A stretch of DNA of 49,621 bases from Minisyncoccota bacterium (GTDB lineage Bacteria; Patescibacteriota; Minisyncoccia; Minisyncoccales; PWPS01), in assembly GCA_021734685.1 (NCBI GenBank), contig JAIPIL010000001.1:1-49621 (forward strand), in the 5' to 3' direction. Positions 6,791-49,584 of the stretch are shown here, piece after piece. Under the pieces are notes generated by a model. That model did no database searches. It was not told the DNA's origin and saw only the letters and a program-made list of their open reading frames with translations. The stretch's first letter is position 1, and every line of letters starts with the position of its first letter. A program made the translations under genes and the position numbers.

Positions 6791-6826
6791 CCCCCAAAGC
6801 CAAGGGCTTTGAGGGCTTTTTTGTTC
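6791..6826. terminator. Hairpin caaagcc-aag-ggctttg with flanking T/A runs, likely terminator between convergent units
   Basis: 7-bp stem. T-run ttttttgtt on the + side and tttttgttgtt on the - side. Confidence 0.4.
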
Positions 6827-6835
6827 TAATTTTCC

Positions 6836-7201: not shown

Positions 7202-7245
7202 TTTATTTTTATTGTTTTAATAAAAATCAACGACCTTTATTATAT

Positions 7246-7641: not shown

Positions 7642-7645
7642 ATTT

Positions 7646-16334: not shown

Positions 16335-16409
16335 GGGCGCATAGCTCAGCTTGGTAAGAGCGCTACTCTTATAAAGTAGAGGTCCCTGGTTCAAGTCCAG
16401 GTGCGCCCA
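16335..16409 (+). tRNA. tRNA-Ile (anticodon TAT)
   Basis: Acceptor gggcgca/tgcgccc, anticodon stem ctact/agtag with loop ctTATaa, GGTTCAAGTCC T-loop. Confidence 0.7.
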
Positions 16410-16454
16410 CAGTTTGTTTAATTTTGAATTTAGATTCCACCCGAAGGGTGTAAT

Positions 16455-30747: not shown

Positions 30748-30759
30748 TTTTTTAACTCC

Positions 30760-31878
30760 TTAGTTTTTTATAGGCATTATAATATAAAGAAAGTCTTCTT
30801 TATTTACTGGCCTTAAAATTCCTGGACTACTTTCGTTATTTATTTCAAAAACAACCTCTGAGTCTTTTATATTAGAAAGACCATCTAAAATAAATCTATA
30901 ATTAAAAGAGACACTAACACTCTCTCCCTCTGCTTTTCCTGATATTTTTGTTTCGTAATTACCTAACTCATTGTTGTTACTTTTAATAACAACTTCTTGT
31001 TTTTCAGAATCCACATCTAATATAACTTCATTTATTTTGCTTGTAAAAATACTTGATGCTTTTATTTTATTTAGGAATTCATCCTTATTTAATATTATTT
31101 TCGTTTTTAACTCTTTCGGAATAATACTTTGATAGTCTGGATAATTTCCTTCTATTATTTTTGATGTGAGCTCAATATGAGAGTGATTAAAATCATCCAT
31201 TTTTAATTTAAATAATATCTGATTATCTCCAAAAATAATTTCTATCTCTTTGTTTACTTCTTTAAAAATATTAACAACTTCTCTTGCTGTTCTCTGAGGA
31301 ATAATAACAGAAAAATCATCTATTTTTTCTTGTATTTTTATTTTCTTTTCAGCTAATCGGTAACTGTCAGTTGCTACTAAATATATTTTTTTATTTTTTA
31401 AAGAAAAAAGAACTCCTGATATTTCTGGTTTAACTTTAGACATTGAAGGAATGTCTATAATTTGCAATAATGCTTCGCATAAATCTTTACTATTTAAAAC
31501 TATTTTTTGTTTCTCTTCTGTTTTAGGAATAATTGGAAATTCTTCTACATCAACACCATTTATTTGTGTTTTATAATCATCACAGTCTAAAAGAATATTA
31601 TTATCTTTTGTTTTTAAGGTTATTTTCTTATTTGGAAGAAGATTAATAAAAGAAGAGAATGAATTATAAGGAATAACGACTTCTCCATGATCTTCTATTT
31701 TTCCTAATGTCCAATATTTTATTGCTATATCTAAATCAGTTGCTGAAAAGCTAATAAAATCATCTTCTGTTTTTATTAATATGTTTTTTAAAACAGGAAG
31801 TGATATTGATTTAGATGATGCTCTTCCGATAATACTTAATCCTTCTTTTAATTTATTTTGTAGTAAATTTATAATCAT
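30760..31878 (-). CDS. dnaN: DNA polymerase III beta sliding clamp
   Basis: Three-domain clamp pattern. Sits immediately downstream of dnaA on the same strand. Confidence 0.85.
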   Translation of the reverse strand: MIINLLQNKLKEGLSIIGRASSKSISLPVLKNILIKTEDDFISFSATDLDIAIKYWTLGKIEDHGEVVIPYNSFSSFINLLPNKKITLKTKDNNILLDCDDYKTQINGVDVEEFPIIPKTEEKQKIVLNSKDLCEALLQIIDIPSMSKVKPEISGVLFSLKNKKIYLVATDSYRLAEKKIKIQEKIDDFSVIIPQRTAREVVNIFKEVNKEIEIIFGDNQILFKLKMDDFNHSHIELTSKIIEGNYPDYQSIIPKELKTKIILNKDEFLNKIKASSIFTSKINEVILDVDSEKQEVVIKSNNNELGNYETKISGKAEGESVSVSFNYRFILDGLSNIKDSEVVFEINNESSPGILRPVNKEDFLYIIMPIKN

Positions 31879-32069
31879 AATATTAAATTAATTTATTAAC
31901 TAGTAGTTATTAGTACACTTGATAACTTGTAAATCCTTTTGTTTAAAGGGTTTTTTTATAAGGAAAAAAGATTAAAAAAGTGTTGAAAAGTGTTAAGTAA
32001 AAAAATCACCTGAATTTTAAATGTTTTTTTAACCTCTTTTCCACAACATCTTAACACCTCTACACTTCT

Positions 32070-33443
32070 TTACATTGAAAATAAACTTTCCCTTATGTGT
32101 GATATTTCTTCTTTTATCTCATTATTACTTTTTATCTCTCTCTCTATTTTAGAAAAAGAGTAAATTACTGTTGTATGATCTTTTCCGCCAATTTTTTTGC
32201 CAATATAAGGATAAGAGTAATTTAACTCTTTTCTTAAAAAGTATATTATAATCTGCCTTGACTTTGCAATTTCTTTTTTTCGGGAAGGGCCCATTATGTC
32301 TTTTTCATTAGTGTCATAAAAACTAGTAACTGCTTTTATAATTTTATCAAAAGAAAAATTAGACAAATTAGATTGGTTTATATTATTTAAAACAAGTTTT
32401 GCTGCTTCTATATTAATAGGTTTTTTTAATACCTGTTGATTAATTATTAATTTATTTAAAACTCCTTCAAGTTCTCTTATACTTCTTTGTATATTATCAG
32501 CAATAAAATAACAAACTTCGTCAGGAACATAGAAATCTTTCTCTTCAGCTTTTGTTTTTAAAATAGCTGCTCTTGTATCAGTATCAGGATTTCCAATGTC
32601 AACAATCATTCCTCCTTCAAATCTTGACCTTAGTCTGTCTGCTAAAGAACTAATAGATCGGGGTGGTCTATCAGAAGAAAGAATAATCTGTTTATTTTTT
32701 TCATATAAATTATTAAAAGTGTGAAAGAATTCTTCTTGTGTTTTTTCTTTATTAGAAAGAAATTGAATATCATCAATAATTAAAACATCAATATCTTTAT
32801 ATCTGTATTTAAAATCATCCATCTTGTTGTTTCTAATAGAAGATATTATTTCAGATATAAATTTTTGTGCTTGAACATAAAGAACTTTTTTTCCTTGAAA
32901 ATCATTTTTTATTTTATTTCCAATTGCTTGGATAAGGTGAGTTTTTCCTAGTCCAGTTTTACTGTAAATAAAAAAAGGATTATATAAAGATCCAGGATTT
33001 TCTGAAACAGCAGATCCTGCAGCATGAGCAAGTTCATTAAAAGGACCAACAACAAAATTATCAAAATTATATTTAGGATTTAACCCAGTTTCACTGTCAA
33101 TTGTCATTTCTGGAAATTCCATCTGGTTTTCAGAGTTTTCAACTTGTTTTTCATTAGAAGAGTTTTTATTATTAGAAACAGGAGGTAAAGAGTTGGGACT
33201 TATTATATATTCTATTTTTTTAATATTTTTATTTATCCTTTTTACTGTTTCTAGTATTTTTTTATGATATCTACTTTGAATCCAGTCTCTGACAAAGGTG
33301 CTTGGAACAGAAACGACAACTATGTCTTTTTTTATTTCAAAAATACTTGTGTTTTTAAACCAAGTGTTAAAACTTGCATCAGAAACATCAAGCTGAATTT
33401 CAGCAAGAACAGATTTCCAAAGATTTTCTTTTTCTATAAACAT
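32070..33443 (-). CDS. dnaA: Chromosomal replication initiator DnaA
   Basis: AAA+ Walker A GLGKTHL, Walker B, and a C-terminal DnaA-box binding domain. Confidence 0.9.
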   Translation of the reverse strand: MFIEKENLWKSVLAEIQLDVSDASFNTWFKNTSIFEIKKDIVVVSVPSTFVRDWIQSRYHKKILETVKRINKNIKKIEYIISPNSLPPVSNNKNSSNEKQVENSENQMEFPEMTIDSETGLNPKYNFDNFVVGPFNELAHAAGSAVSENPGSLYNPFFIYSKTGLGKTHLIQAIGNKIKNDFQGKKVLYVQAQKFISEIISSIRNNKMDDFKYRYKDIDVLIIDDIQFLSNKEKTQEEFFHTFNNLYEKNKQIILSSDRPPRSISSLADRLRSRFEGGMIVDIGNPDTDTRAAILKTKAEEKDFYVPDEVCYFIADNIQRSIRELEGVLNKLIINQQVLKKPINIEAAKLVLNNINQSNLSNFSFDKIIKAVTSFYDTNEKDIMGPSRKKEIAKSRQIIIYFLRKELNYSYPYIGKKIGGKDHTTVIYSFSKIEREIKSNNEIKEEISHIRESLFSM

Positions 33444-33597
33444 AAGGATATAAACTTAAAATTACTATATCATATTATAATTAATTGTGGAAAACTACTA
33501 AAATGGGAAAAAGTTGTGGATAACTTGTTAAAAATAACTAAAGATTGACTTATTTTACTATATAGAGTAATATATTGTTAAGTTAAAAGATAAATTT
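33444..33597. promoter_or_regulatory. Probable oriC (dnaA-rpmH intergenic region) with DnaA boxes and an AT-rich unwinding element
   Basis: Perfect DnaA box TGTGGATAA (= TTATCCACA) at about 33515..33523, a one-mismatch box TGTGGAAAA at 33486..33494, and an AT-rich stretch at 33451..33485. Another TTTTCCACA box lies at about 32036..32046 on the other side of dnaA. Confidence 0.6.
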
Positions 33598-33729
33598 ATG
33601 TTTTCCAGAGTACTTAAAAAAAGAAAAAGAAAAAAGACTCACGGATTTTTAGTTAGAAAAAGAACTAAAGGTGGGTGCAGTGTTCTAAAAAGAAGAATAA
33701 AGAAAGGAAGAAAAAAAATATCAGCATAG
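33598..33729 (+). CDS. rpmH: 50S ribosomal protein L34
   Basis: A 43-aa ORF that is not in the supplied track: MFSRVLKKRKRKKTHGFLVRKRTKGGCSVLKRRIKKGRKKISA. It matches the L34 pattern KRKR..THGF...G..VL.RRR.KGRK. Confidence 0.85.
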   Translation: MFSRVLKKRKRKKTHGFLVRKRTKGGCSVLKRRIKKGRKKISA

Positions 33730-33756
33730 ATTCTAATCTCTAAGATATTGTTTTTT

Positions 33757-34094
33757 ATGTTTCCTCAAAAAAATAGGTTACGAAAAAGAAAAGAGTTTGA
33801 GGATGTATTCAAAAAAGGAAAAACCTTTTTTGCTTCTTTTTTTTTGTAAAAATAAAAGAGAATAGTTTTAACTTCTCTAGATTTGCCTTTGTTGTTCCTA
33901 AAAAAGTAGAGAAAAAAGCAGTTGAAAGAAATAGAACAAAAAGAATGATGAGAGAAATTTTTAAAGAGTTTTCGGTTTGTTTTAATAGAAGTGTAGATTT
34001 GATTTTTATTACTCAAAAAAAAATAAATAAAGAAGATAGAGAAAAAGCAAAAAAGGAAGTAGAAAGAATTTTAAAAAAAGCAAAATTAATATGA
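33757..34094 (+). pseudogene. rnpA: RNase P protein component RnpA, interrupted by a frameshift at a T9 homopolymer (33837..33845)
   Basis: Frame 0 gives MFPQKNRLRKRKEFEDVFKKGKTFFASFFL then a stop at 33847. The -1 frame continues ...VKIKENSFNFSRFAFVVPKKVEKKAVERNRTKRMMREI...KLI to 34094. One extra T restores a full-length ~112-aa RnpA. Confidence 0.7.
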
Positions 34095-34856: not shown

Positions 34857-36641
34857 TTAGAAGCCTGTTTTTGCTTGTTTTATTTTTTGAAGTTCTTCTG
34901 GGGAAGAAGTTATTATCTGATCTTCTGCGTAAGAAGCAGTTATTCTTATTACCACATGTTTTTGTCCGGCAAAAAATATTCCTTCCCCAACTTCTCCCTC
35001 TAAAAGAGTTGATTTTTCTTCTCCAGTTAAATTGAAAGTTTCTTGAACAGTGTCTATAACTGCGGGAGATTGTTTAAGAAGTATTTTTAAAGCAGAGTTG
35101 TTAACAATTGGTTTTCCGTAACTTGAAGACATAAAATCAGAAACATCTTGAGTTATTGTAGATACTCCTAGCCAGTATTTTCTTGCTCTTTTAACTAATC
35201 CAAAAAGGAAAGAGGCTCCATCTTCGTGCTTCATCATTACCCACGCCTCATCAACAATAAACAATCTTTTCTTCATAGAAGAGGTTATTGTTTTCCAGAT
35301 GTAACGAGAAACAATAAACATTGCAATCGGTCGCATCTCATCTTCAAGGTCTCTTATTCCAAAAACAGTTATATTGTTATCCATTGTAACATTTGTGTAC
35401 TGGTTAAAAAATTCAGAATATGTTCCTTGGGTAAATTTTCCTAAACGAAGAACAAGATTTCTTGTTCCTTCCATTGAGTCTAAAACTTGCTCTAAATCAG
35501 AGAAGATAGGAATGTTTTTTTCCCAAGTAGAAGGGTCACTTTCAGGAGTTATATCTTTGGCAGCGTATGTTTCAGTGATTGCTTGGTCTATAATAGAATC
35601 TTCTTCAGGAGTAAGTCCTCCTAACATAATGCGGAGAAGACCAACAAGCCCGATAGTGTTTCTTCTTATAACTTCTGCAGGAGTTTCTCCTTCTACGGGG
35701 ACAGGAATATCAAAAGGATTAATATGATTATCAGAGCCGAGAGAAATATTAAAGAAAGATCCCCCAGCTGCTTCAGCAAGTGTTTTGTATTCGTTGTCAG
35801 GATCAATAATAATGACATCTATTCCACTCATCAAAGAACGAAGAGCTTCTAGCTTGACTAGATAAGATTTTCCACCTCCAGAAACGCCGAAGATGACAGA
35901 GTTTGCATTTTCCAGTGAGAATCTATCAAAAATAACAAGAGAGCGATTGCTTGCATTTATTCCGTATAAGATTCCATCATTAGAAGTGAGATCAAAAGAA
36001 ACAAAAGGAAAAATACTAGAAAGAGGTTCGGTATTCATTGGGGTTTTTGTGTTTACAAGGTCTATCCCAAACGGACAACTACTTATAAATCCTCCTGATT
36101 GTTGAAAAAGGGTTGGTCGGATGTAAACAGAACTTGATTCAAGAATTGATCGTAGGGTGTTCTCAATGTCTTCAGTTTCTTTTTCTGAATCACCAAAAAC
36201 AGTTATATAAAGACCTAACTGAAACATCTTCTCTTCAGCCATCTGTAAGCGATCTCTAAGTTCTTCCATGTCACCGTGAGCAGTTTCCAAAATAGGATCT
36301 CTTATATTTCCTTTTTCTCTTTTCTCCATTATTTCTGCTTGAGTAGCAGTTATCTGTTTTCTTAATTTTTTCAAAACATCACCAGTGTTTGCTGGGGTTA
36401 TGAAAAAAGATATATCTAACTGAGTATTAAGGTTTATAATAGAAGAAAGCCAACCAGCGTTTAAATAACGAGGATAAGAAAAAACAAAAAAAGAACGAGA
36501 GTATCTTTCTCCAAGCTTCAGATGTCCTTGTTTTTCATCAATAGAAGAAGGAGCGATAATATCAACAATTCTTAAAACACCATCGTCCTCCTCTTTCTTC
36601 TTTTTCCCAATTAAATTTTTAAAATCATCTATAAAAGACAT
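34857..36641 (-). CDS. VirB4/TrsE-family type IV secretion ATPase (ATPase domain)
   Basis: Walker A IFGVSGGGKS, Walker B RLFIVDEAW, C-terminal motifs, and the overall AAA_10/DUF87-like pattern of conjugal-transfer VirB4 proteins. Confidence 0.75.
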   Translation of the reverse strand: MSFIDDFKNLIGKKKKEEDDGVLRIVDIIAPSSIDEKQGHLKLGERYSRSFFVFSYPRYLNAGWLSSIINLNTQLDISFFITPANTGDVLKKLRKQITATQAEIMEKREKGNIRDPILETAHGDMEELRDRLQMAEEKMFQLGLYITVFGDSEKETEDIENTLRSILESSSVYIRPTLFQQSGGFISSCPFGIDLVNTKTPMNTEPLSSIFPFVSFDLTSNDGILYGINASNRSLVIFDRFSLENANSVIFGVSGGGKSYLVKLEALRSLMSGIDVIIIDPDNEYKTLAEAAGGSFFNISLGSDNHINPFDIPVPVEGETPAEVIRRNTIGLVGLLRIMLGGLTPEEDSIIDQAITETYAAKDITPESDPSTWEKNIPIFSDLEQVLDSMEGTRNLVLRLGKFTQGTYSEFFNQYTNVTMDNNITVFGIRDLEDEMRPIAMFIVSRYIWKTITSSMKKRLFIVDEAWVMMKHEDGASFLFGLVKRARKYWLGVSTITQDVSDFMSSSYGKPIVNNSALKILLKQSPAVIDTVQETFNLTGEEKSTLLEGEVGEGIFFAGQKHVVIRITASYAEDQIITSSPEELQKIKQAKTGF

Positions 36642-36852
36642 ATAATATAATTTTCAATTTTCAATTTGGCAATTTTCAATGAATGACTAAATGAAAAAAG
36701 CACCAAATCACAAGCATCAAATTCCAAATAAATTCAAAATCCTAAATTCAAAATTCAAAACAATCATTGTCATTCCCGCGAATGCGGGAATCCAGTTTTG
36801 GAAATTAAAAAATTGAAAATTCATTGAAAATTGAAAATTGCCAAATTGAAAA
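36642..36852. mobile_element. MITE-like element (same 40-bp inverted arms as 23757..23915), enclosing one copy of the CTGGATTCCCGC hairpin; directly abuts the virB4-like start codon
   Basis: Left arm 36649..36691, right arm 36813..36852, internal hairpin 36768..36795. The 51 bp at 36642..36692 are nearly identical to 37488..37538. Confidence 0.5.
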
Positions 36853-36860
36853 TTCTTTTG

Positions 36861-37487
36861 TTATCTTGTTAATTCTTCTGGGAATTCTGGGTAGTATCCT
36901 TTTTCGGCGCTTTTTGAGTGGAAGACTGACCAGAACAGTTCAATTATTTCAACAGTTGTTAGTGGGGCAGAGTGAAGGCCGCATCTTCTTAGCCCTAAGG
37001 CAACAAATTCCATTCTTTGGTAAAGCTGTCTTTTCCCACGGAGAAAACTGTCTTCAGTTATATCTTCTTCATCTCCTTTCTTCTTTCTTGAAAACTCAAC
37101 TCCTGATGAGTTGTAAGGAACAACAACAAAAAATCGTTTAGAATAGATGGATTCTTTTTCTATAAAATCTTCTAAAAATTGCCGATATCCAGCGGTTTGT
37201 TGTTGAAGAAGTTGATTGGTTTGTTTTTTTTCAATTTCTTTTATCTTTTCAATATATCCTGTAATGTTTGTTTTTCTTGACTGAACGACGATCTGACATG
37301 TGAAGTCAAGGGAATTTAGAAACGATTGGAAACGATCTATTATTGCTTTTTGTTCATCAGGGGATTTAAGAGCGATATTAACAGAAGAAACCATAAGAAT
37401 TCCTCTTATTCCTCCAGCACTTAAAATAACAGTACCTTCACGGATCTGCTTAATAGGGATAAAGTCTTGAGTGCTTTTAGTGGACAT
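36861..37487 (-). CDS. Cytoplasmic protein, possibly the detached N-terminal domain of VirB4
   Basis: 208 aa with no TM, beginning MSTKSTQDFIPIKQIREGTVILSAGGIRGIL, which resembles the N-terminal segment of Gram-positive-type VirB4 proteins. It sits between PrgI/VirB3-like and VirB4-ATPase genes. Confidence 0.35.
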   Translation of the reverse strand: MSTKSTQDFIPIKQIREGTVILSAGGIRGILMVSSVNIALKSPDEQKAIIDRFQSFLNSLDFTCQIVVQSRKTNITGYIEKIKEIEKKQTNQLLQQQTAGYRQFLEDFIEKESIYSKRFFVVVPYNSSGVEFSRKKKGDEEDITEDSFLRGKRQLYQRMEFVALGLRRCGLHSAPLTTVEIIELFWSVFHSKSAEKGYYPEFPEELTR

Positions 37488-37649: not shown

Positions 37650-38057
37650 TTATGCTGTTTCTATGAACTTGTTTACATCGCTTAATCTTCCTTTTGTTGC
37701 TTTTTTCTTTTTTTGCTTTACTACTGGTTCTTCTTTTTTTCTTTTGCTTGGTTGGTTAACTTTTATAATATAGTCTTTCTTTTTCCAAAGGTATCTTTTA
37801 TAGGAAGTACTGAAAAAAATAACTTTCTTTATATAACTTGGTAGTGGTTCTCCGTTTTTTTGAAAAAAAGCAAAAGCAATACCGACTGCTCCAACTAAAA
37901 AAGCAAGAGTGTAAAAAATTGGGGATGTTCCTCCAAAAACAACAAATAAAAGCAAAATAACAAAAGCGGCAACAGCAAGATATCCGAGTTGAGAAAAAGA
38001 AGCTGGCCCTAATATCTTTGCTTCTCTTTCAATATAATGAGGAACTTTGTAGCGCAT
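37650..38057 (-). CDS. PrgI/VirB3-like small membrane protein
   Basis: MRYKVPHYIEREAKILGPASFSQLGYLAVAAFVI followed by a second TM. This matches the PrgI-family pattern (basic N-terminus, ..E.KI.GP.T.RQ..YL, two TMs). Start is the ATG at 38057, because the track start is a TTG. Confidence 0.55.
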   Translation of the reverse strand: MRYKVPHYIEREAKILGPASFSQLGYLAVAAFVILLLFVVFGGTSPIFYTLAFLVGAVGIAFAFFQKNGEPLPSYIKKVIFFSTSYKRYLWKKKDYIIKVNQPSKRKKEEPVVKQKKKKATKGRLSDVNKFIETA

Positions 38058-38061
38058 AAAG

Positions 38062-38192
38062 ATATAGAAACATTTGACATTTAACAATTGACATTTGACT
38101 GTTGATATATATTCTGGATTCCCGCGTTCGCGGGAATGACAGTGGTTTCAATGGTCAATAGTCAAATGTCAACTGTCAATTACTATTCTATC
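38062..38192. repeat. Composite intergenic repeat: GTCAA-type heptamer arrays in inverted orientation flanking the hairpin element 38114..38141
   Basis: Left catttgacatttaacaattgacatttgactgttga, right ggtcaatagtcaaatgtcaactgtcaatt. The hairpin is CTGGATTCCCGCGTTCGCGGGAATGACA. Confidence 0.7.
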
Positions 38193-38240
38193 ACAAAACA
38201 ATCCTTTGACAATATTTTTTTTTAAAGTTAAAATGAACTA

Positions 38241-40787
38241 ATGATTAAGGGCAAAAAACTAATATTACTTTTTGTTTTTTTTATCTGTTTTTTTGCAGTT
38301 GCTTTTACATATGGAACAGAAGTTGATTATCCAGAAATAATGGGAACAACAGTAGGGGAAGATTCTTCAGTTGGTGATTTTGTTCAGTATCTTTTTAAGC
38401 TTACTATATTATTATCGGTTGTTGCTGTTGCAGGAATAATTCTCTATGGTGGTTTTGTATATCTAACCTCTCCAATAAATCCAGAGAAAAGAAAAGATGC
38501 GCAAAGAAGAGTTTATAATGGATTTGCTGGTCTTTTTATAATTCTTTCCTTTGTTGTGGTCGTGAATGCAATTAATCCTGATCTGCTAGAAATAGACCTT
38601 CCTTCACTAGGAATTGAAACAGGAGAAGATCCAGAAGATGTTTATTTTGGTGAAGAGTTAAGTGGAGATCTAGTTGTGGAAGAAGTTCCGGTTGGAACAT
38701 ATATGGAAGAAGAACTTAGTCCGATTTCAACAAGAATAGATACAATAGAAACAATGGATGAGTTAAAAGAAATGATTGAAGAAGAGAGAACTTTTAATCC
38801 TACAGTAAAAGGAATATCTGGGCTTAATCATTATCTTTTAAGTATCTCTGACGAGTGTTCTTGTGACAATGCTACTTGTTACTGTGCTCCTTCTTGCCCA
38901 ACTGGGATGCCTGAATTAGGGTGCCAGTCGCTTTTTTGTTCAGGTGATGTTTGTGATAGTGGAGATGGAGAACCTCGGGAAACAATGGAAGAGATTGAAG
39001 AGATAAATAAAGAAATAACAGAAGATCTTCAAAACATAAAAAATCAATTAGCATCGTATAGAGATGATTTCAAGAAAAGATTAAATGTTTTTCAAGAACT
39101 TGAAAAAAGAAAAAATGATTGCGCAGTTCAAGGACCGATAACTGAAAACGAGAAGACAAAAATAGAATCTTATCTTGAAAAAAGAGAGATGGATATTACG
39201 GTTAAAACTCACAAAGAGATGGGGATTACAGGAAGTGTTCCAAATCCATTAGATGCACACTGTGTTGTTGGTGGGCGACTTGTTGATTCTGGTGATTTTC
39301 CAAGAGAAGACCCAGCTTTTTTTGATAGATTATGGGAATTGGATTATATGGAAAGAATTGTTTGTCCTTACGAGTACCAGATTGGTGAAATATTTGACAA
39401 AACAAGAGAGTTGGCAATTATTAAGGTTATAAAGTTAGAGATATTAGTTGAAAGAGTAGAAGAGTTGTTAGTAGAAATACAGAAAGTAAGTGAATATGTT
39501 TCTGACATAGGAGTTCACAACTGTGAGCCAGATTGTAGTTGTATTTATAATCCTTGTTATAAACTTTGCTACCTGCCTTGGTGTTCTGCATTTTGTTACT
39601 GTATGTGTCTTGACTGTGTGGGAGGATGTATTGAAGAAGCTTCTCCTTACGGAGGGTTAATAAAAAGTGGAGATAGAGGTAAGATATACGAATCAGTTGA
39701 AAAAATGGAAGAATTGGAAGAAGAAATTCTTTTGCTTATAAAAGAGATTAACAGCACTATTATAGAAATAGCCCTTCCTATAAATCAGAGAGTTGTAATT
39801 ATCACTGATGTAAATATTCAAGGAAGCTCTGATTCAGCAGTAGTAGGAGAAAGTTATCTTGTTACCGACATAGATACAGTAAGTGATCGCTTGAAAATAT
39901 ATGATGATATTGGACAGAAAGGAGAAGGGGAAAGAAAAGAAGAAGGGTGGATTTCATTTGGTTCTTTTGAATTTGAGAACGATGAGATAGAAAAGATAAA
40001 ACAAGCAGCTAGTGAATGTTACACTCCAGTAGAATTATCATCATCAGGTGAAGAAAATTGGATTACTTTGAATAGAGAGAAAGCAGTCGGTAATTATGGT
40101 CCATTAGATTATCACATACTGACAAATCCTCATCCAAGAAATCTTTTTTGTTGTTCATATTCTGAAAACACAAAAGAACAGTATAGTGTTCCTGATCGTT
40201 ACAGTCTTGATTACAATATAATTCCCGCAGAATCATTTGATCCTTTATTGGAGTGGAGTGATGATGATAACTGTATTGAAGGATATGATTGTGCTTCGGA
40301 AATATCTTTACCAAGTGAGGCTGACTATACACAATATGATGATGCTTCTTTTAAATTAAAACAACAAATTACTTGCATGAGAAATGAACTTGACACAATT
40401 CAGATGAAAGAAGAGATCGGGCTTGATGATGATGGGAACATAACTGATCCAATCGGAGATATTTCATATATAACCGACCATCGTCTTTACGAACCATACA
40501 ACTCTTGCTCTTTTATTTTTGGAGGTGATTGTAGTTTTGATCACACGATGGTTTACGGGCAGAAAAGAATATCGCCACACTACGGAGGAAGTAAGTGTTA
40601 TGAAACAAAACTTTCTTATGCTGTTTCTTTTAGTGATGTTGAAAATGCAGAATATATTATAAAAGCCTCAAAAGCTTGTAATGCATCAAGTTATGTGACA
40701 TACATTCCTGTTTCCGCAGAAGGAGAAACTTCTTCTAAGCATATTCAAGTTAGTATAGCGGGAGCTTATGGTTGTGGAGCAGATTAA
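38241..40787 (+). CDS. Large secreted cysteine-rich protein with N-terminal VirB2/TrbC pilin-like domain (putative pilus-associated adhesin)
   Basis: Signal peptide plus a TM-loop-TM domain (…ILYGGFVYLTSPINPEKRKDAQRRVYNGFAGLFIIL…INPDLLE) that aligns with the small paralogs at 6836..8029 and with 43676. It is followed by ~700 aa with dense Cys clusters (CSCDNATCYCAPSCPTGMPELGCQSLFCSGDVCDSG; CEPDCSCIYNPCYKLCYLPWCSAFCYCMCLDCVGGC). Confidence 0.5.
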   Translation: MIKGKKLILLFVFFICFFAVAFTYGTEVDYPEIMGTTVGEDSSVGDFVQYLFKLTILLSVVAVAGIILYGGFVYLTSPINPEKRKDAQRRVYNGFAGLFIILSFVVVVNAINPDLLEIDLPSLGIETGEDPEDVYFGEELSGDLVVEEVPVGTYMEEELSPISTRIDTIETMDELKEMIEEERTFNPTVKGISGLNHYLLSISDECSCDNATCYCAPSCPTGMPELGCQSLFCSGDVCDSGDGEPRETMEEIEEINKEITEDLQNIKNQLASYRDDFKKRLNVFQELEKRKNDCAVQGPITENEKTKIESYLEKREMDITVKTHKEMGITGSVPNPLDAHCVVGGRLVDSGDFPREDPAFFDRLWELDYMERIVCPYEYQIGEIFDKTRELAIIKVIKLEILVERVEELLVEIQKVSEYVSDIGVHNCEPDCSCIYNPCYKLCYLPWCSAFCYCMCLDCVGGCIEEASPYGGLIKSGDRGKIYESVEKMEELEEEILLLIKEINSTIIEIALPINQRVVIITDVNIQGSSDSAVVGESYLVTDIDTVSDRLKIYDDIGQKGEGERKEEGWISFGSFEFENDEIEKIKQAASECYTPVELSSSGEENWITLNREKAVGNYGPLDYHILTNPHPRNLFCCSYSENTKEQYSVPDRYSLDYNIIPAESFDPLLEWSDDDNCIEGYDCASEISLPSEADYTQYDDASFKLKQQITCMRNELDTIQMKEEIGLDDDGNITDPIGDISYITDHRLYEPYNSCSFIFGGDCSFDHTMVYGQKRISPHYGGSKCYETKLSYAVSFSDVENAEYIIKASKACNASSYVTYIPVSAEGETSSKHIQVSIAGAYGCGAD

Positions 40788-40796
40788 AAATAAAAA

Positions 40797-43670
40797 ATGA
40801 AAAAAGATTTTTATAAAAAAATATTTTATACACCGTTAGCTGTTTTTCTATTTTTAGCAGTAATATCTATTATAAATCAGCAAACAGTAGTTGTTGGTGA
40901 TTATTTTCGTCCAGCTCCAGAAAGATTAAATATTATTGTTGATGAGATAGAGCAAGTTCTTTATGATATTGCTGGGTCAGAAACAGGAGATGATCTTTTT
41001 TCTGAAGTTACATCACTAATGCAAGAAGCGGATTGTCAATATGCAGACTCTCTTTGTAGAGAAGAAGGATGGACTACGGTTGGAGGGTTGATGGAGATTA
41101 GAAGTTGTGGAGTAATAGATAATAATGGGGTTGTTGGTAATTTATGGAGTAGTGAAAGTAAGCAAGAAGATTTTTATGCAAAGCAAGAAGAACTTCAAGA
41201 AAAAAAAGAACAGTTACAGTTTCTTCAGAACATATTAAAAAAAGAGATGAATCACGGAATTGCAAAAGACATTCAACAGATGAGAATTCAAGGAATGGAT
41301 GACGAAGCAGATATGGTAGAAGAAGAGTTGGGACTTCTCCTCTTTCTATTAGACCCTAATGATTCTGAAACAAGAGAGATATTAGATGAGGAGATTATAG
41401 AAGAAGGAGAGTCAATTTTAAGCAGTTCAGGAGTCAGTTGGTCAACAGAGTCACTTGTTAGTATATTAGATGAAGTAGTATCAATCTCTCCTGAAGGAGC
41501 AAAAGCTTCTTGCGTTCATGTTTGTGATCAAGAATACACAGTTACATTTTGTTTTAATACCACAAAACAAGAGAGTGTTGATCTGGTTTTTAATATAGCG
41601 CTTGAAATAAGTGATTTAGTTATAGACCCGATAGAGATAAAAGAGATAGTTTTGGCTCTTCCAGAAGAAGTTGATATTCCTGAAGTAAAATTGCAGTTTA
41701 GTATTCCTATTCCTGATATTAGCACGATAGAAGGAGGTTTTTCTATTGAAACAGAACCATCTCCAGAAAAGGGATTTTATTCTGATGAGATATGGTTGTC
41801 TTGTCCTGAATATGAAAATCACTCATTAAGTTATGGAGAGGTGGATATTGGAGAGATAAATCCAACAGAGATGAAGTGGTTTTTTGAAACATACGGCTAT
41901 CTGTCTGATGGGTGTAATAAAATAACATCTACTTTGTATGATCCGATAGACCCACTTTGCTATGATCCAAAAACAGTAATTTCAAGAACATCATCAAAGT
42001 GTGCAAGTATTTGGGGTTGTAATCCAGAAGCTCTTACTTGTAACTGTGGAGGGGCTGACTGCACTCTCTGCGAAGACCTTTACTGTGCTTGTCCGGATAC
42101 AGAGTGTAGCAGTTGTACTATAAAAAACGCTCAAGCCGAGGCGTGTGCTTCTCTGTTTTTAGGAGCAGGATCACCTATTCCTAGTGCTTGTACTCCTTCT
42201 GTAGATAAGGATGGGATGACTACTTGGCCTGGTGATATGTTGCCAGTAATGAAAGATAAGTGCTTAGAGATACTAGAGGAAGAAAAAGAAAAAAGTGTTG
42301 ATGATCAAGATGACATGCCTTACGAGTGTGCACTTGTTGCTGCTTGGGAAGGAGACATAGATCTCTATTCTGATGGATATTCAGAAACAATTGGTGGAGG
42401 CTCTGTTAATCTTGATGAGGGAAAGATCGGAGTTCTTCCTGACAGTTTTATTGGTTGTGATCCTCCAGAGATTCCTTCTTTTCCTAAAATTCCTCTTTCT
42501 GATTTTAATATAGAGATACCTGACATAAAAACACCTGATATTAATTTTTGTCCGATTGTTAAAGTTCAATTACCAGATGTGATAATAGAGGATTTGGAAT
42601 TTCCAGACATAGAACTTTGTAATTTGCAAGAATGTCAAGAACTTTTAGATTTTTTCCCAAATTTTATTGATGGTTTACCAACATTAGGAAGATTTCAAAT
42701 AGAAGTTCCGCCGTTAGATATTAATCCAATAGAGATAGACGGAATTGGAGTTGATATAGAGATAGCTCCTTTAGAAAATCTTTCTTTGGATTTTCATATG
42801 CCACAGATGCCTAATCTAAACTCTATATCTCTTTCTGAGTTTATATACGAAATTCCAGGGATAGAGATGCCGAACCCAGAGTTAACTTTTTCTTTTGGAG
42901 GAATAAATATAGATCTGATGTCAGCACTTATCGGATTTATTTTAAACTTTATTATGGCTGATCTACCAGGAGGATGTGCTACTCTTGGCGTTAAAATAGG
43001 ATGTTTAAGTGTTGTTTTTGAAGATTACCATCTTTCTTGGGGCGATTTTCCCAAAATACCAGAGATACCTGCTTGTGTGACCGCTCAAGAATTTTGTCGT
43101 GATTCAAAAAAGAAGTTAGGACAGTTGATAGACACAACAAACGAGATTGCTGAAGGAATACAAAGCACAGTTGGTGGCGTTCTTCAAATTCCAAGTGACA
43201 AGATTGATGAGATTGAAGCGTTAATAAATGAGAAAGTTCAGGAGAAAGAAGAAGAGATAAATGATATGGTTGAAGATTACGATCTTGTTGGAGAAATTGG
43301 AGAAGAGTTAATTGAACTTATTGATATTGGTGATATAGAGATAGATATTTCTTTAACTGATATTGCTGGAATTCCAGAAACAGTAACAATTCCCTGGGAT
43401 GCATTGGGAGTTGAGCCAAAAATCACTCTTTCTAACCCGATAGAGATTGAAATGCCAACAATTCCTTTATCAGATATAGGGGTTGAAAAAGAACTTATAA
43501 TATATATTCCTTTCTTACAGGTAAAAGAATTATTTAGTGCCGACATTGGAGGGTCAAGTTGTGAAAGTGACACTTCTAGCCAATCACTTTTTCAAGATTT
43601 CTTTGATAATAATTTTGACACTAAACTTGAGTTACAAGTAGAAGATATAATTAACATAATAGAAGATTAG
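40797..43670 (+). CDS. Large acidic, cysteine-containing secreted/surface protein with internal (I/F)P(D/E)I-type short repeats
   Basis: N-terminal signal anchor. Cys-rich block (CNPEALTCNCGGADCTLCEDLYCACPDTECSSC), then repetitive IEIPDIKTPDINF / LEFPDIEL / PPLDINPIEIDGIGVDIEIAPLE segments. Very D/E-rich. Confidence 0.45.
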   Translation: MKKDFYKKIFYTPLAVFLFLAVISIINQQTVVVGDYFRPAPERLNIIVDEIEQVLYDIAGSETGDDLFSEVTSLMQEADCQYADSLCREEGWTTVGGLMEIRSCGVIDNNGVVGNLWSSESKQEDFYAKQEELQEKKEQLQFLQNILKKEMNHGIAKDIQQMRIQGMDDEADMVEEELGLLLFLLDPNDSETREILDEEIIEEGESILSSSGVSWSTESLVSILDEVVSISPEGAKASCVHVCDQEYTVTFCFNTTKQESVDLVFNIALEISDLVIDPIEIKEIVLALPEEVDIPEVKLQFSIPIPDISTIEGGFSIETEPSPEKGFYSDEIWLSCPEYENHSLSYGEVDIGEINPTEMKWFFETYGYLSDGCNKITSTLYDPIDPLCYDPKTVISRTSSKCASIWGCNPEALTCNCGGADCTLCEDLYCACPDTECSSCTIKNAQAEACASLFLGAGSPIPSACTPSVDKDGMTTWPGDMLPVMKDKCLEILEEEKEKSVDDQDDMPYECALVAAWEGDIDLYSDGYSETIGGGSVNLDEGKIGVLPDSFIGCDPPEIPSFPKIPLSDFNIEIPDIKTPDINFCPIVKVQLPDVIIEDLEFPDIELCNLQECQELLDFFPNFIDGLPTLGRFQIEVPPLDINPIEIDGIGVDIEIAPLENLSLDFHMPQMPNLNSISLSEFIYEIPGIEMPNPELTFSFGGINIDLMSALIGFILNFIMADLPGGCATLGVKIGCLSVVFEDYHLSWGDFPKIPEIPACVTAQEFCRDSKKKLGQLIDTTNEIAEGIQSTVGGVLQIPSDKIDEIEALINEKVQEKEEEINDMVEDYDLVGEIGEELIELIDIGDIEIDISLTDIAGIPETVTIPWDALGVEPKITLSNPIEIEMPTIPLSDIGVEKELIIYIPFLQVKELFSADIGGSSCESDTSSQSLFQDFFDNNFDTKLELQVEDIINIIED

Positions 43671-43675
43671 TTTAA

Positions 43676-44929
43676 ATGAAAAAAATACTGTTTTTAATTT
43701 TCTTTCTTGCCTTTCTTGTTTCTCCACTGCTTGCTTTTGGAGATGATCCTTATGATCCAAATTTAGAAATAGAGTATCAGTGGCTAGATGATGCTGCCAA
43801 TGAAACTGAACAGGTTGGTACTTATGTTGCTTATCTCTTTGATTTTGGAGTAATAATTGTTGGGCTAATTCTTTTCGGAGCGCTTATTTACGGCGGTTTT
43901 GTTTTTATGACATCGGCGGGGGATCCGGGAAGAAGATCGGAAGCAAAAAGAAAAATAATAGCAGCGTTTTTAGGAACGATTCTTCTTCTTGGTTTTTATG
44001 TTTTAATAAATGAGATAAACCCTGACCTTCTTCAAGTTTCAGTAGAAGAACCAGAAGAGATAGAATATCCACCACTACCAGCAGGGCCTTATATCTGCAA
44101 TTTTGATTTTCCAGAACTTGACAGTATTCTTACTGATTATGTAAGTGCTGACGCTGAAACAAGAAACAGTGCTATACAGTTATTCTATGAAAAATTAAAA
44201 GAACGAGATAGCGATGAATATTGTATGGAGATAAAAACTCCAAAAGACACCGATTTTGGATATTTAACAGGAAGTAATGGTAATTATTTTGTTATTCCAG
44301 AGCTAGATGGAGGAACTCCTACTTATAATTATGGAGTTATTATTTTTGCTGAAGAAGATGGACTAAGAAAATCAAAAGCAAAAGGAGATGGAGTTATATG
44401 TTATGTATCTACTGGAGAAGTTACTGGAGGAGAAATAGACACAGGATTTTATATGAAATCAGTGGCACCGATAAGACTGAAACCTGACGAGCAAGGATGG
44501 GTTTACCTTTATGAAGGATATAACTTTAATGATGAAGATGATCCTAAAAACAATGAATATACAGGAGGAGCTTTAAAAGAATTATCAGTTCCACTAGGAC
44601 CAGGATCAAAAGAATCATTAATGACAGAAGCAATACTGGGAGCTGATTTTGTTTGTGGTATGATGAGTAGTTTTTGGAGTTCTGATAAACATCACTGCGG
44701 AATAAGGTCGTTTGAAATTGGAGAACCTGCTCCGGTTTTCGCTGTTTTTAAGACAGATGATGGTTCTTATGAACGATGTAATATAGCCAATAATAATTTT
44801 GGAGACTTGTCATCTCTTCTTCCAGGGTCAATTATAAAAGGAAATGACGATCTTGAAGGACTTACGCAAGTTTTTAAATTTAATGAAATTCATCTAATAA
44901 AAGGATATTTGATGGATTCAGAAAGATGA
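43676..44929 (+). CDS. Secreted protein with N-terminal VirB2/TrbC pilin-like domain plus ~300-aa globular domain
   Basis: …LILFGALIYGGFVFMTSAGDPGRRSEAKRKIIAAFLGTILLLGFYVLINEINPDLLQ aligns with the 848-aa protein N-terminus and with the small pilin-like paralogs. Confidence 0.5.
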   Translation: MKKILFLIFFLAFLVSPLLAFGDDPYDPNLEIEYQWLDDAANETEQVGTYVAYLFDFGVIIVGLILFGALIYGGFVFMTSAGDPGRRSEAKRKIIAAFLGTILLLGFYVLINEINPDLLQVSVEEPEEIEYPPLPAGPYICNFDFPELDSILTDYVSADAETRNSAIQLFYEKLKERDSDEYCMEIKTPKDTDFGYLTGSNGNYFVIPELDGGTPTYNYGVIIFAEEDGLRKSKAKGDGVICYVSTGEVTGGEIDTGFYMKSVAPIRLKPDEQGWVYLYEGYNFNDEDDPKNNEYTGGALKELSVPLGPGSKESLMTEAILGADFVCGMMSSFWSSDKHHCGIRSFEIGEPAPVFAVFKTDDGSYERCNIANNNFGDLSSLLPGSIIKGNDDLEGLTQVFKFNEIHLIKGYLMDSER

Positions 44930-46947
44930 TTAAAAAACAATTTAAAAATATTCTCTCAAGTTTTAAAGAAACAAAAACCCTTCTTTTTGCTTCGGTTTTC
45001 GCTTTGTCTGCTCCTCTTCTTGTGAACGCAAATTTTGTTTATGAAGGAATGGTGAGTTTTTTTGTGACTATTGCAAAAATTCCCTATTACTTAACAATAT
45101 ATCCAGCGATATGGATGACTGATCTTTTGTCTTTTGTGACAAGCTCTGATTTTATTACTTTTTCATATACAGGAGGAGATAATCCCGCTATTGCTGCTGG
45201 TCTTCCGATAACGCAAGGAATATCAAATATAATTTTAATACTGGTTTTACTGATTGTTATTGTTGGAATAATTCTTGAACTGAACGAATACGGATCAAAA
45301 AAGATGTTCGTTAAATTGTTAATAGTGGCTCTTTTAATAAACTTTGCTCCACTGCTCGTCGGTTTAATTGTTGACGCAAGCAATGTTCTTATGAATTATT
45401 TTATTGCAGGAATTGGAGATGAGATAAGCGCAATAAAAAGCACAATTGCTGGTGATGGGGGAAAGTTAATATTAGAAGAACTGGACGCAGAAGGGAAAGC
45501 GGGAGGAATTACAGAAGATATGTTAGTGCCAGTAGCTCTCCTTCTTATGCAGGCATTTATTAATGTCATAATGATTTTCGTTCTTTTCTTGTATGCTCTT
45601 TTATATATCTGTCGTTATATCGCAATATGGATTATTGTGATTCTTTCCCCGATCGCATTTGTTTGTATGATTCATACAACTACACAGAAATTATGGAAAG
45701 ATTGGTTTAAGCAGCTGATGCAGTGGTCACTTGTTGGTGCAACAGGAGCTTTCTTTCTTTACTTGTCTTTAAAAGTTAATTCTGAAATAAGAGCAGCGTA
45801 TGATACGGTTGGGATTCCAGTAGAAGGAGAGTCATTTATTTCAGACACTTTTAGTGCTATTCTTCCTCTCGGAATGGTGGCGATTTTTGCAGTAATGGGA
45901 TATATCTTAGCAATAAAAACCTCAGCGATAGGAACAGATAAAATAATAAATGTTGGACAATCAACAAGAAGGAGAGCAGTGAAGTGGGGCGCTGTTGGCG
46001 GTTATGTTGCTGGAAAATATGGAGCAAAGAAAGCAAAAGAAGGAGCGCAGTGGGGAGGAAATAAGATAGCTGGAGATAGAGCAAAAGGATGGTCAACAAA
46101 AGAAAACTGGGGAGAAGGCGAGAGTGGCTTTAAGGGATGGGCAAAAAGGACAGCAGGAAAGCCAATAACTGGAACGGCAAGAGCAACGGGAAGATTCTTT
46201 GGTCCAGGAGCTGAAGAACAACAACAAAACAAAGAACAAGAAAAGATAAATAAAGAGAAAGAGAAGTGGAAAGGAAGAAGCACTGATATTAAAGCTTCAA
46301 ATATAATGGGTGAGGGAAACAAGAGAGATATGGGAGCAGTGGTTAGTGCTGCGATAGAAGATGGAGATTTTGAAGATTTGATGAAAACTCCAGCTGGAAA
46401 GAAAATTCAAGAAAATTATGCCAATATCTATAAAACAATGAGTAAAGGGGGATCTGATAAGGCGATAAAAGAAGCACTTCCAGTTGAGTATCTTAATATG
46501 AAAAAAGCGGAAGGAATTAGTGAAAGCGAACTTGAAAAAGAAACAATGAATATCGCTAGAAATGGTGATGCATTAAAAGGATCAGCAAAACAAATTGAAA
46601 AAAGAATAGAAGAGGGCGACGAGATGGCAATGAAGCTTGGAAGAAATATATTACAACAAAAAACTAACACCATTCAGTCGTTTGTTGATAACGCCGAGAA
46701 AGGAATGAAAGCGTTTGAGCAAGTAGCTACACAATACTACAATAAGAATGAAGGATCCTTGAAAAATGCTTATAAGATATCTAGCGATGGAGATAAGATT
46801 AATGCTGCTATCTACACCCTTAATCCTTCGTTTGTTAAACACATTGACAAATCTCCAGGACAGATTATAACTGACATAAAAACTCCAGAATTAAAACAAT
46901 CTAGTGGAGGATCACCAATAGTAGATCAGTATGGAAACCCACTTTAG
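44926..46947 (+). CDS. VirB6/TrbL-like polytopic membrane protein with Gly/Lys-rich hydrophilic C-terminal tail
   Basis: Signal sequence, five or more hydrophobic helices across 250 aa (…IILILVLLIVIVGIIL…, …VLFLYALLYICRYIAIWIIVILSPIAFVCMI…), then a long charged tail. The start overlaps the upstream stop (ATGA), suggesting translational coupling. Confidence 0.45.
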   Translation: MIKKQFKNILSSFKETKTLLFASVFALSAPLLVNANFVYEGMVSFFVTIAKIPYYLTIYPAIWMTDLLSFVTSSDFITFSYTGGDNPAIAAGLPITQGISNIILILVLLIVIVGIILELNEYGSKKMFVKLLIVALLINFAPLLVGLIVDASNVLMNYFIAGIGDEISAIKSTIAGDGGKLILEELDAEGKAGGITEDMLVPVALLLMQAFINVIMIFVLFLYALLYICRYIAIWIIVILSPIAFVCMIHTTTQKLWKDWFKQLMQWSLVGATGAFFLYLSLKVNSEIRAAYDTVGIPVEGESFISDTFSAILPLGMVAIFAVMGYILAIKTSAIGTDKIINVGQSTRRRAVKWGAVGGYVAGKYGAKKAKEGAQWGGNKIAGDRAKGWSTKENWGEGESGFKGWAKRTAGKPITGTARATGRFFGPGAEEQQQNKEQEKINKEKEKWKGRSTDIKASNIMGEGNKRDMGAVVSAAIEDGDFEDLMKTPAGKKIQENYANIYKTMSKGGSDKAIKEALPVEYLNMKKAEGISESELEKETMNIARNGDALKGSAKQIEKRIEEGDEMAMKLGRNILQQKTNTIQSFVDNAEKGMKAFEQVATQYYNKNEGSLKNAYKISSDGDKINAAIYTLNPSFVKHIDKSPGQIITDIKTPELKQSSGGSPIVDQYGNPL

Positions 46948-47363: not shown

Positions 47364-47398
47364 TAAAAAGAGGGGAGGTGTTAGACACCTCCCCTTTA
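47364..47398. terminator. Bidirectional terminator hairpin (aggggaggtg-ttaga-cacctcccct) with flanking A/T runs
   Basis: 10-bp perfect stem between the convergent 136-aa gene and the SPFH gene. Confidence 0.65.
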
Positions 47399-48915: not shown

Positions 48916-49584
48916 ATGAAAAGAAAAGACCCATTAGTTACTGGAAATGTTTATCATATTTTAAATAAAAGCATTGCGGGTTATAATATATTTCCCTCAG
49001 ATAATGATTATGAACTTTTTATCAAGATGATTAGATTTTTTTCTGTTGATGAAGATCTTCCAAAGTTTTCTCGTCTTTTGCCTCAAGCTGAAAGTGAAAG
49101 AAAAAGTTTTGAGCAATTTTTAGATGAAAAAACAAATAACAATTTCTTGATTCAGATAATTGCTTACACTGTCATGCCAACCCATTTTCATTTAGTAGTT
49201 AAACAACTTAAAGATGAGGGAATTTCAAAATTTTCAGGAAATATTTTAGGATCTTATTCACGAATATTTAATGCTCGTCATAAAAGAAGAGGACCTTTGT
49301 GGGAAAGCAGGTTTAAAAATGTTCCTGTTACTACTGATGAGCAGTTAATACACTTAACTAGATACACACACCTTAACGCGAGAACAGCAGGATTGGTTGA
49401 AAAGCCAGAACATTGGAAATATTCTTCATACAAAGAATATATTGAACCAGAAAAAATTAGTTATCCTATTTGTAAATTTGATGACTTGTTTGATATAAAT
49501 CCTTCAGAGTATCGTAAATTCGTAGAAGATCAAAAAGACTATCAAAGAGAACTAGCCAGAATCAAAAAAATAACCCTTGAATAA
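48916..49584 (+). CDS. REP-associated tyrosine transposase (RAYT; IS200/IS605-like Y1 HUH transposase)
   Basis: HUH motif PTHFHLVV and a catalytic-Tyr region (IHLTRYTHLNARTAGLVEKPEHWKYSSY). Flanked on both sides by the REP palindrome. Confidence 0.8.
   Translation: MKRKDPLVTGNVYHILNKSIAGYNIFPSDNDYELFIKMIRFFSVDEDLPKFSRLLPQAESERKSFEQFLDEKTNNNFLIQIIAYTVMPTHFHLVVKQLKDEGISKFSGNILGSYSRIFNARHKRRGPLWESRFKNVPVTTDEQLIHLTRYTHLNARTAGLVEKPEHWKYSSYKEYIEPEKISYPICKFDDLFDINPSEYRKFVEDQKDYQRELARIKKITLE

Follow-up and report, generated by a model that had tools for sequence, protein, structure and literature searches.

Two genes in the type IV secretion system (T4SS) locus of a Minisyncoccota bacterium (assembly GCA_021734685.1) were found to encode long pilins, in which a VirB2/TrbC-type pilin hairpin is followed by a large additional domain. 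The window, that is, the whole stretch of DNA analyzed (contig JAIPIL010000001.1, 49,621 nucleotides, approximately 35% G+C), carries the origin-proximal T4SS locus of a Patescibacteria (candidate phyla radiation, CPR) chromosome. The two proteins, of 848 and 417 amino acids (aa) and referred to here as w848 and w417, are encoded in one operon with a 957-aa protein (w957), a VirB6/TrbL-like protein, and a 136-aa protein (w136) (Table 1). The fusion of the hairpin to a large domain was genuine and conserved. What is new is the existence of modular VirB2-like pilins in the T4SS of Patescibacteria together with a new, probably LAS-related domain; the fusion itself is common in databases.

An initial annotation, made from the DNA alone, had described a signal peptide and two transmembrane (TM) helices around a basic loop at the N-termini of both proteins, had assigned this unit to VirB2/TrbC-type pilins, and had recognized it in three stand-alone proteins encoded at 6836–8029; all of this was borne out. 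Hydropathy analysis of both N-termini revealed a hydrophobic signal segment (the signal peptide of w848 being residues 1–25) and then two hydrophobic helices around a basic loop, at residues 50–68 and 93–111 of w848 and residues 59–77 and 94–112 of w417, and the hairpin of both long pilins ended with N-x-I-N-P-D-L-L. Against PF18895 (T4SS_pilin), w417 scored 31.1 bits (E 2.5e-7), above the cut-off of 26.6 bits, whereas w848 (residues 56–111) scored 23.6 bits (E 5.5e-5), just under it. One of the three short pilins passed the cut-off of TrbC/VirB2 (PF04956), and the TrbC scores reached 29.4 bits. The N-terminal domains of w848 and w417 showed 31–35% identity with each other (E 8e-18 to 8e-20). 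When the five N-terminal parts were aligned, a common loop motif, [AS]-G-D-P-x-K/R...A-K, and an invariant glycine in helix 2 were apparent, and AlphaFold2 predicted residues 43–79 and 84–114 of w417 as a helical hairpin with a per-residue confidence (pLDDT) of 65–74.

As a control, a profile was built from the three short pilins alone, and each query was compared with 1000 composition-preserving shuffles. The profile gave 30.1 bits with the N-terminal domain of w417 and 22.5 bits with that of w848, against shuffle maxima of 6.3 and 9.3 bits, respectively, and at most 2.8 bits with PrgI, YidC, and a VirB6 segment of the window. Because the real scores exceeded those of both the shuffles and the other membrane proteins, the hairpin likeness was far above generic hydrophobicity. 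The N-terminal units of w848 and w417 are pilin hairpins of the VirB2/TrbC type (PF18895) and share homology with the three short pilins. In both proteins, the hairpin leads through a conserved N-x-I-N-P-x-L junction and an acidic linker into the cargo. With extensions of 723 and 292 aa past the hairpin, both proteins exceed the usual length of a mature pilin (less than about 130 aa). As the positive-inside rule places the basic loop in the cytoplasm, both ends of the hairpin are predicted to be outside and the C-terminal cargo extracellular, where it is probably disulfide-bonded.

The same fusions were present in other genomes. A k-mer-based homologue search found six full- or near-full-length relatives of w848 on independent contigs (72–95% identity) and twelve matches of w417, down to 29% identity, on independent contigs from metagenomes and metagenome-assembled genomes (MAGs); more distant w848 relatives lay beyond this search and were reached only by the hairpin profile and the C-domain profile described below. 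A single scan of a genome collection yielded three loci, which can only sketch the taxonomic spread. The whole operon recurred in L004 and L005. In L002 the order was a giant w957 relative, three tandem w417-type long pilins, VirB6, and a w136 homologue, and in a locus of Ca. Nealsonbacteria (L008) it was a w848 homologue, a 2116-aa w957 homologue, ksgA, a w417 homologue, VirB6, a w136 homologue, PrgI, and a split VirB4. The L008 homologue of w848, which showed 39 and 54% identity with w848 over two stretches, lies at the edge of the locus; the residues ...ERINPELL, with which a pilin hairpin ends, stand in frame ahead of it. In L002, L004/L005, and L008 alike, the w417 homologue directly precedes VirB6. 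The VirB6 of the window was 36–38% identical to those of L002 and L008, and in L004 its close homologue is listed under PF19590 (TrbL_3); w136 has homologues in the corresponding place in L002 and L008, with 45–46% identity. The gene order of the operon is conserved in three lineages. In comparison with L004, dN/dS was 0.067 for w848, 0.051 for w957, and 0.071 for w417, values that point to purifying selection on the long pilins. Another locus, L003 (Logan SRR7046215_43), carries at 2116–2928 a 270-aa protein (P0168) consisting of a hairpin, a linker, and a LAS-like domain, near yidC, rnpA, dnaA, and dnaN. As P0168 stands without VirB6 or VirB4 within the 12.9 kb around it, not every long pilin adjoins the T4SS core.

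To place the two proteins among pilins at large, a hairpin profile made from the N-terminal domains of eight long pilins was searched against 1.84 billion cluster representatives, and 71,203 proteins matched at E<=1e-3, 15,408 of them at E<=1e-10. Among the best 150 matches, a list biased toward the query type, 147 were long or multi-hairpin proteins and three were ordinary short pilins: 43 had one hairpin and an extension of at least 100 aa, 44 had several hairpins and an extension, and 60 consisted only of 2–17 tandem hairpins. The 86 extensions of the best matches fell into 27 similarity groups, the largest of which (39 of the 86) was the w417-type cargo, whereas nine were of the w848 type. 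In 30 of the 43 single-hairpin long proteins, the junction N-x-I-N-P-x-L-L stood directly at the end of helix 2. Long pilins, by these results, form a class that is both large and diverse. The multi-hairpin proteins, which made up 104 of the best 150 matches and carry 2–17 tandem PF18895 hairpins per chain (for example, P0026 with 1775 aa, P0021 with 1147 aa, P0030, and P0039), can be called poly-pilins; they may be processed, or they may be polytopic membrane proteins.

Wall-active cargo is recurrent among the hairpin fusions. Pfam scans of 80 of the best hairpin matches detected SLT (lytic transglycosylase) in seven (P0019, P0029, P0048, P0053, and P0060 among the fusions), Peptidase_M15_4 in one (P0079), and NlpC/P60 in one (P0091). 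P0079 and P0091 have near-identical N-terminal parts with two hairpins and carry different wall hydrolases, M15_4 with the motif S-N-H-S-F-G-A-A-L-D in the former and an NlpC/P60-like domain in the latter. From its sequences the pair looks like a swap of cargo cassettes, and because one shared N-terminal part bears two different hydrolases, the hairpin is a promiscuous carrier. NCBI already labels relatives of the long pilins as pilin, and papers on the T4SS of Patescibacteria treat VirB2-like pilins as small proteins. The initial annotation had taken the fusion to be undescribed. This appears correct for the literature, in which we found no description of a VirB2-like hairpin fused to large extracellular domains, but in databases the fusion is not exceptional, as the composition of the best 150 matches indicates.

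The two cargo domains differed from each other. Both had been called cysteine-rich in the initial annotation, a description that fits w848, which has 34 cysteines and two CxC-dense blocks (residues 206–238 and 428–463), but not w417, whose cargo (residues 125–417) has six invariant cysteines (approximately 2%). The middle module of w848, about 540 aa long, is acidic, with helical or coiled-coil stretches that were read by eye from the sequence. Its N-terminal part is common to long pilins of 611–665 aa (P0123, P0130, and P0161). A profile of the 848 family matched P0161 as one domain over profile positions 1–437 (8.8e-25) and P0123 as one domain over positions 23–434 (3.4e-27), in both cases with the hairpin included, whereas in P0130 it matched over positions 27–233 only.

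The last 150–180 residues of w848 form a separate domain (C-domain), which also closes P0018 and P0153. A profile of this domain found proteins of approximately 270 aa composed of a hairpin, a Pro/Thr linker, and a w848-type C-domain, and also stand-alone copies from Komeilibacteria and Falkowbacteria. An M15/LAS zinc peptidase was suspected, ahead of structure work, from the family motifs G-R-I-S-S-I-S-D, C-x-H, S-C-H-Y-G-G, S-Y-A-V-D-F-G-D, E-G-N-H-x-H-[IV]-S, and a C-terminal C-G-C-N. The AlphaFold2 model of residues 668–848 (19 sequences) had a pLDDT of 65.6, with a core above 90, and a predicted template modeling score of 0.68. Its elements were ordered as helix, strand, long loop, strand, helix, strand, and strand, which presumably corresponds to the Hedgehog/DD-peptidase fold. 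The best structural matches of the model were of the LAS/M15 fold: the Sonic hedgehog N-domain (score 5.8), LysB4 (5.5), VanX, Ply500, and Hedgehog (5.4 each), the L-Ala-D-Glu peptidases of T5 and RB49 (4.8), MepA (4.6), the Streptomyces albus DD-peptidase (4.4), VanY (4.3), and LdcB and VanXY (4.2 each). We regard a Hedgehog/DD-peptidase (LAS/M15-like) fold of the modeled C-domain as reasonably likely.

Several results spoke against this assignment. Unrelated small alpha/beta domains scored almost as high against the model as the LAS/M15 structures did, and the loop with the conserved S-x-H-Y-G-G was modeled at a pLDDT below 50. Foldseek searches of the model against PDB and BFVD returned nothing below an E value of approximately 1, and the C-domain matched no Pfam family at E<=10 and no PDB sequence beyond chance. 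Comparison by hhalign with the C-terminal parts of P0079 (M15_4) and P0091 also gave no signal; the template alignment of these two proteins was poor, because P0091 carries an NlpC/P60-like domain. Scattered intein/Hint matches among the Foldseek results were not significant.

In relatives of the C-domain, S-C-H-Y-G-G ... A-V-D and E-G-N-H-x-H are kept, with the His, Asp, and Glu-x-x-His conserved. In the w848 lineage, C-x-H is changed to Y-G-Q, A-V-D to A-V-S or A-V-T, and H-x-H to H-I-Q (Q-L-Q in L008), and E-x-x-H is lost, so that Asp, Glu, and one His of the LAS metal-ligand and catalytic set (S-x-H-x-x-G-x-A-x-D and E-x-x-H) are gone from w848. Because these conserved polar residues are changed, catalysis by the w848 C-domain is unlikely and binding is the natural alternative; to judge from the residues, the domain probably binds rather than cuts. 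Degenerate LytM factors such as EnvC and NlpD, which have lost catalytic residues and retained the fold, offer a parallel. The model resembles LAS/M15 zinc peptidases (VanX, VanY, MepA, and phage L-Ala-D-Glu peptidases), but the C-domain falls in no M15 sequence family, and in its relatives the His and the Asp stand further apart than in the canonical H-x6-D. The C-domain defines a new family of pilin-associated domains (about 130 aa), which is probably related to M15 peptidases.

In the w417 cargo, the commonest type among the best hairpin matches, the family alignment showed invariant motifs including P-A-G-P-Y-[IV]-C-N-F, E-G-Y-x-F-N, and C-G-[IV]-R-S. A beta/gamma-crystallin-like motif noticed by eye (Y-E-G-Y-N-F) was supported by no tool and is not claimed. 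The operon partner w957 has no pilin hairpin, and neither w957 nor its relatives of about 2,000 aa gave a match in searches of Pfam, NCBIfam, and PDB sequences; the same was true of the cargo domains of w848. It is a shortened relative of proteins of 2025–2116 aa (L002, 2–6079; L008, 2707–9057). As residues 41–498 and 443–908 of w957 align to the two ends of these giant relatives only, their central approximately 1,000 residues are missing from w957. None of w848, w957, and w417 matched the VirB5/TraC, CagL, or PrgB families in Pfam or NCBIfam, and SLT, CHAP, and NlpC/P60 catalytic domains were absent from the window proteins in Pfam searches.

On balance we consider it somewhat probable that the two long pilins, encoded in the structural half of the T4SS locus, are used as sparse or distal adhesin or tip subunits. 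According to this explanation, their hairpins would be inserted into the membrane by Sec and YidC, and VirB4 and VirB6 would extract and stack them as they do ordinary pilins. A helical shaft has no room for a cargo of 30–80 kDa on each of its subunits, and the long pilins would accordingly be added only sparsely, or would make up the distal layer that enters the filament first, before the short pilins encoded at 6836–8029 (the presumed shaft subunits). As the lumen of VirB2 and TraA pili is lined by the hairpin loop and both termini of the pilin point outward, display of a C-terminal cargo on the filament is compatible with this topology. VirB5 and PrgB-type adhesins are absent from these systems, and long pilins at the distal end would take over the part of adhesin or tip; through its degenerate LAS-like domain, w848 would bind the cell wall peptide of the host without cleaving it. 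A tip or minor-pilin role, as the initial annotation had also suggested, is plausible from the predicted topology and the gene order. The role proposed here is like that of VirB5/TraC-type tip proteins and adhesins (VirB5, CagL, and PrgB), a minor distal component contacting the target cell; VirB5, however, is not built on the VirB2 fold, and the tip location of the long pilins is inferred. A review proposes that VirB5 docks on VirB6 first and that VirB2 joins afterwards. A tentative extension, which we hold to be possible but doubtful, is that the tip, adhesin, and wall-breaching module missing from the Patescibacteria T4SS is supplied by the long pilins, as VirB2-fold subunits whose domains (SLT, M15, NlpC/P60, the new LAS-like domain, and the w417-type domain) bind or cut the host wall; they would be loaded first on VirB6 and carried at the distal end of a pilus of short pilins.

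Besides the sub-threshold PF18895 score of w848 and the negative searches with its C-domain, several points weigh against a displayed adhesin or tip. The full-length AlphaFold2 model of w417 (nine sequences) had a pLDDT of 38.6, in which only the hairpin was usable and the strands of the cargo were of low confidence, and Pfam, NCBIfam, and PDB sequence searches with the w417 cargo gave no recognizable relatives of known function. In the literature, a pilus has not been seen for any T4SS of Patescibacteria, and the only experimentally studied system, that of S. epibionticum ML1, has short pilins only.

A second explanation, which we judged rather unlikely, is that the long pilins are membrane-anchored accessories of the T4SS, whose hairpin would serve only as an anchor and docking site for VirB6 and VirB4 and keep domains that bind or cut the wall close to the foot of the secretion machine, never entering a filament. 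They would then be likened to the membrane-anchored hydrolases of the PrgK/TcpG/VirB1 type in Gram-positive T4SSs. The bona fide wall hydrolases of many hairpin fusions (SLT, M15_4, and NlpC/P60) and the failure to observe a pilus agree with such a role, as do the poly-pilins, the 104 chains that with their 2–17 hairpins would be polytopic and could not pack like a normal pilin. A survey of Patescibacteria genomes (PMC12102498) detected no adhesins and found that most genomes with VirB2 have no recognizable VirB1, the latter being a further point for an anchored accessory. A mere anchor, however, would need neither the pilin loop motif G-D-P-x-K...A-K nor the glycine of helix 2, both of which are kept, and VirB1-like cutting is unlikely for a LAS-like domain that, as in w848, is without its putative catalytic residues.

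Propilins of RP4 TrbC and VirB2 are trimmed at their C-termini. By analogy, the long pilins could be propilins with a giant C-terminal propeptide, which would be cut near N-x-I-N-P-x-L-L into a short shaft pilin and a released effector or adhesin. That 30 of the 43 single-hairpin long proteins have the junction motif exactly where helix 2 ends, and that flexible acidic or Pro/Thr-rich linkers come after it, would suit such processing, but the motif lies inside the Pfam pilin model and could simply mark the exit from the membrane. Moreover, no peptidase family was matched in the locus genes scanned with Pfam (27504–49584) except for a transpeptidase domain of a penicillin-binding protein (PBP), and we consider this explanation improbable.

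An artefact or chance reading, with generic TM hairpins or a fusion of a pilin gene to a downstream gene by misassembly or frameshift, could cite the Pfam score of w848 slightly below the curated cut-off but was rejected as highly improbable, given real scores of 22.5 and 30.1 bits against no more than 9.3 bits in shuffles, the recurrence of these fused open reading frames (ORFs) across numerous independent contigs, also within a second CPR lineage, and a dN/dS of about 0.07 along the whole length.

Among known systems, the nearest to the window is the array of short VirB2-like pilins in other Patescibacteria T4SSs (S. epibionticum SEML1_0014–0019), which has the same hairpin and the same VirB3/PrgI, VirB4, and VirB6 set and is likewise origin-proximal. 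Whereas the S. epibionticum pilins are approximately 125–185 aa long with no further domain, the long pilins of the window add 290–730 extracellular residues, and their genes lie directly upstream of VirB6, not in the short-pilin array. The Mycoplasma integrative and conjugative element (ICE) represents another monoderm T4SS with a VirB2-like protein. Its pilin-like protein (NCBIfam NF045849, Mbov_0395) matched the window hairpins with scores of 36.8 and 20.4 bits, both short of the cut-off of 40, but it is small and encoded on a mobile element. Wall hydrolases of T4SSs, such as VirB1, PrgK, and TcpG, have counterparts in the SLT, M15_4, and NlpC/P60 domains carried by other hairpin fusions. 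A polymerizing pilin module with a grafted domain for display is the architecture of the modular type IV pilins PilB and PilC of Streptococcus sanguinis. These share the design principle with the long pilins of the window, but filament and fold are unrelated; PilB and PilC have a class III signal peptide, unlike the long pilins with their Sec-type signal peptides and VirB2-type hairpin.

The coordinates of the features are collected in Table 1.

Table 1. Features of the T4SS locus and the short-pilin array in the window
Feature	Position	Strand	Description
w848 long pilin	38241–40787	+	ORF, 848 aa; three modules: signal peptide and hairpin, Cys-cluster/predicted-helical, C-terminal LAS-like
w848 pilin hairpin, approximately residues 43–118	38367–38594	+	TM1, basic loop SPINPEKRKDAQRR, TM2, junction NAINPDLL
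w848 middle module, approximately residues 125–667	38613–40241	+	acidic linker, CxC blocks, helical/coiled-coil by eye
w848 C-terminal domain, residues 668–848	40242–40784	+	likely Hedgehog/DD-peptidase (LAS, M15-like) fold; degenerate metal and catalytic residues
w957 operon partner	40797–43670	+	ORF, 957 aa; N-terminal hydrophobic anchor or signal, acidic, 32 Cys
w417 long pilin	43676–44929	+	ORF, 417 aa; signal peptide, hairpin, 290-aa domain; directly upstream of VirB6
w417 pilin hairpin, approximately residues 44–121	43805–44038	+	loop SAGDPGRRSEAKRK, junction NEINPDLL
VirB6/TrbL-like polytopic membrane protein	44926–46947	+	PF04610 TrbL, E 3.9e-4
w136, small one-TM protein, 136 aa	46953–47363	+	last operon gene; conserved position
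PrgI/VirB3-like	37650–38087	-	PF12666 PrgI, 34.7 bits; divergent from the operon
VirB4 ATPase, split	34857–37487	-	TraC-like N-terminal part 36861–37487; P-loop part 34857–36641
Three short VirB2-like pilins, 121/131/127 aa	6836–7201, 7246–7641, 7646–8029	-	PF18895, 37.5–49.7 bits
Sigma-70-like site TTGACA-17-TAAAAT, 11/12	38206–38234	+	ends 7 nt ahead of the w848 ATG

The five genes of the operon are tightly packed: three of the boundaries span 9, 5, and 5 nt, and at the remaining one the start of the VirB6-like gene overlaps the stop of w417 by 4 nt. PrgI, the split VirB4, and TrbL all lie within 4 kb of the long pilins. Other genes of the window include gyrA, RuvC, PBP, dnaN, dnaA, yidC, and 18 tRNA genes, among them tRNA-Ile with the anticodon UAU at 16335–16410 (+), and the nearest database proteins are from MAGs named Patescibacteria group bacterium. 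The T4SS of Patescibacteria has been described as a set of VirB4, VirB3, VirB6, and VirB2-like proteins without a relaxase, often located beside dnaA (PMC12102498; also PMC12857230), and the locus of the window matches this published layout. It begins approximately 1.4 kb from dnaA, in agreement with the origin proximity reported in PMC12102498. A G+C trough of 26–27% at 30000–34000, around dnaN, dnaA, and the dnaA–yidC spacer, was taken as the putative replication-origin region. VirB4 is split into a TraC-like ORF of 208 aa and a P-loop ORF of 594 aa, with 219 nt between them. As the same split was found in L004 and in Ca. Nealsonbacteria L008 (210 and 600 aa), it is conserved and does not represent an error.

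The promoter-like site ahead of w848, the best in the region, matches the consensus and no more, and such sites were no commoner there than by chance; if used, it would yield a leaderless or near-leaderless operon mRNA. A GC-rich 11-bp hairpin followed by a T-run at 47371–47395, past the last operon gene, is likewise a consensus match only. Further downstream, an IS200-like Y1 transposase gene is located at 48916–49584 (+), and L004 also has one downstream of the operon. The short-pilin array at 6836–8029 adjoins a protein read by eye as Hsp20-like (6262–8029 region, minus strand), and the neighborhood in S. epibionticum ML1 is alike, with the pilins SEML1_0014–0019 followed by Hsp20 (SEML1_0020). 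The listed ORF at 6262–6768 overlaps tRNA-Leu (6679–6761), and for this reason its true start is probably an internal ATG.

The T4SS is essential in the only genetically tractable Patescibacterium, and its role has been called "completely unknown". The long pilins broaden the picture of VirB2 pilins, which are not always small and unfused: the pilin hairpin is a widely reused carrier of extracellular domains, including peptidoglycan hydrolases, and is encoded here beside VirB6. They are concrete candidates for host recognition and wall penetration, and may show how ultrasmall parasites grip or open the cell wall of the host. If the long pilins were indeed the missing tip and wall-breaching module, they would decide on the choice of host and on the way in which its peptidoglycan is opened, and cargo swapping between lineages would tune the host range.

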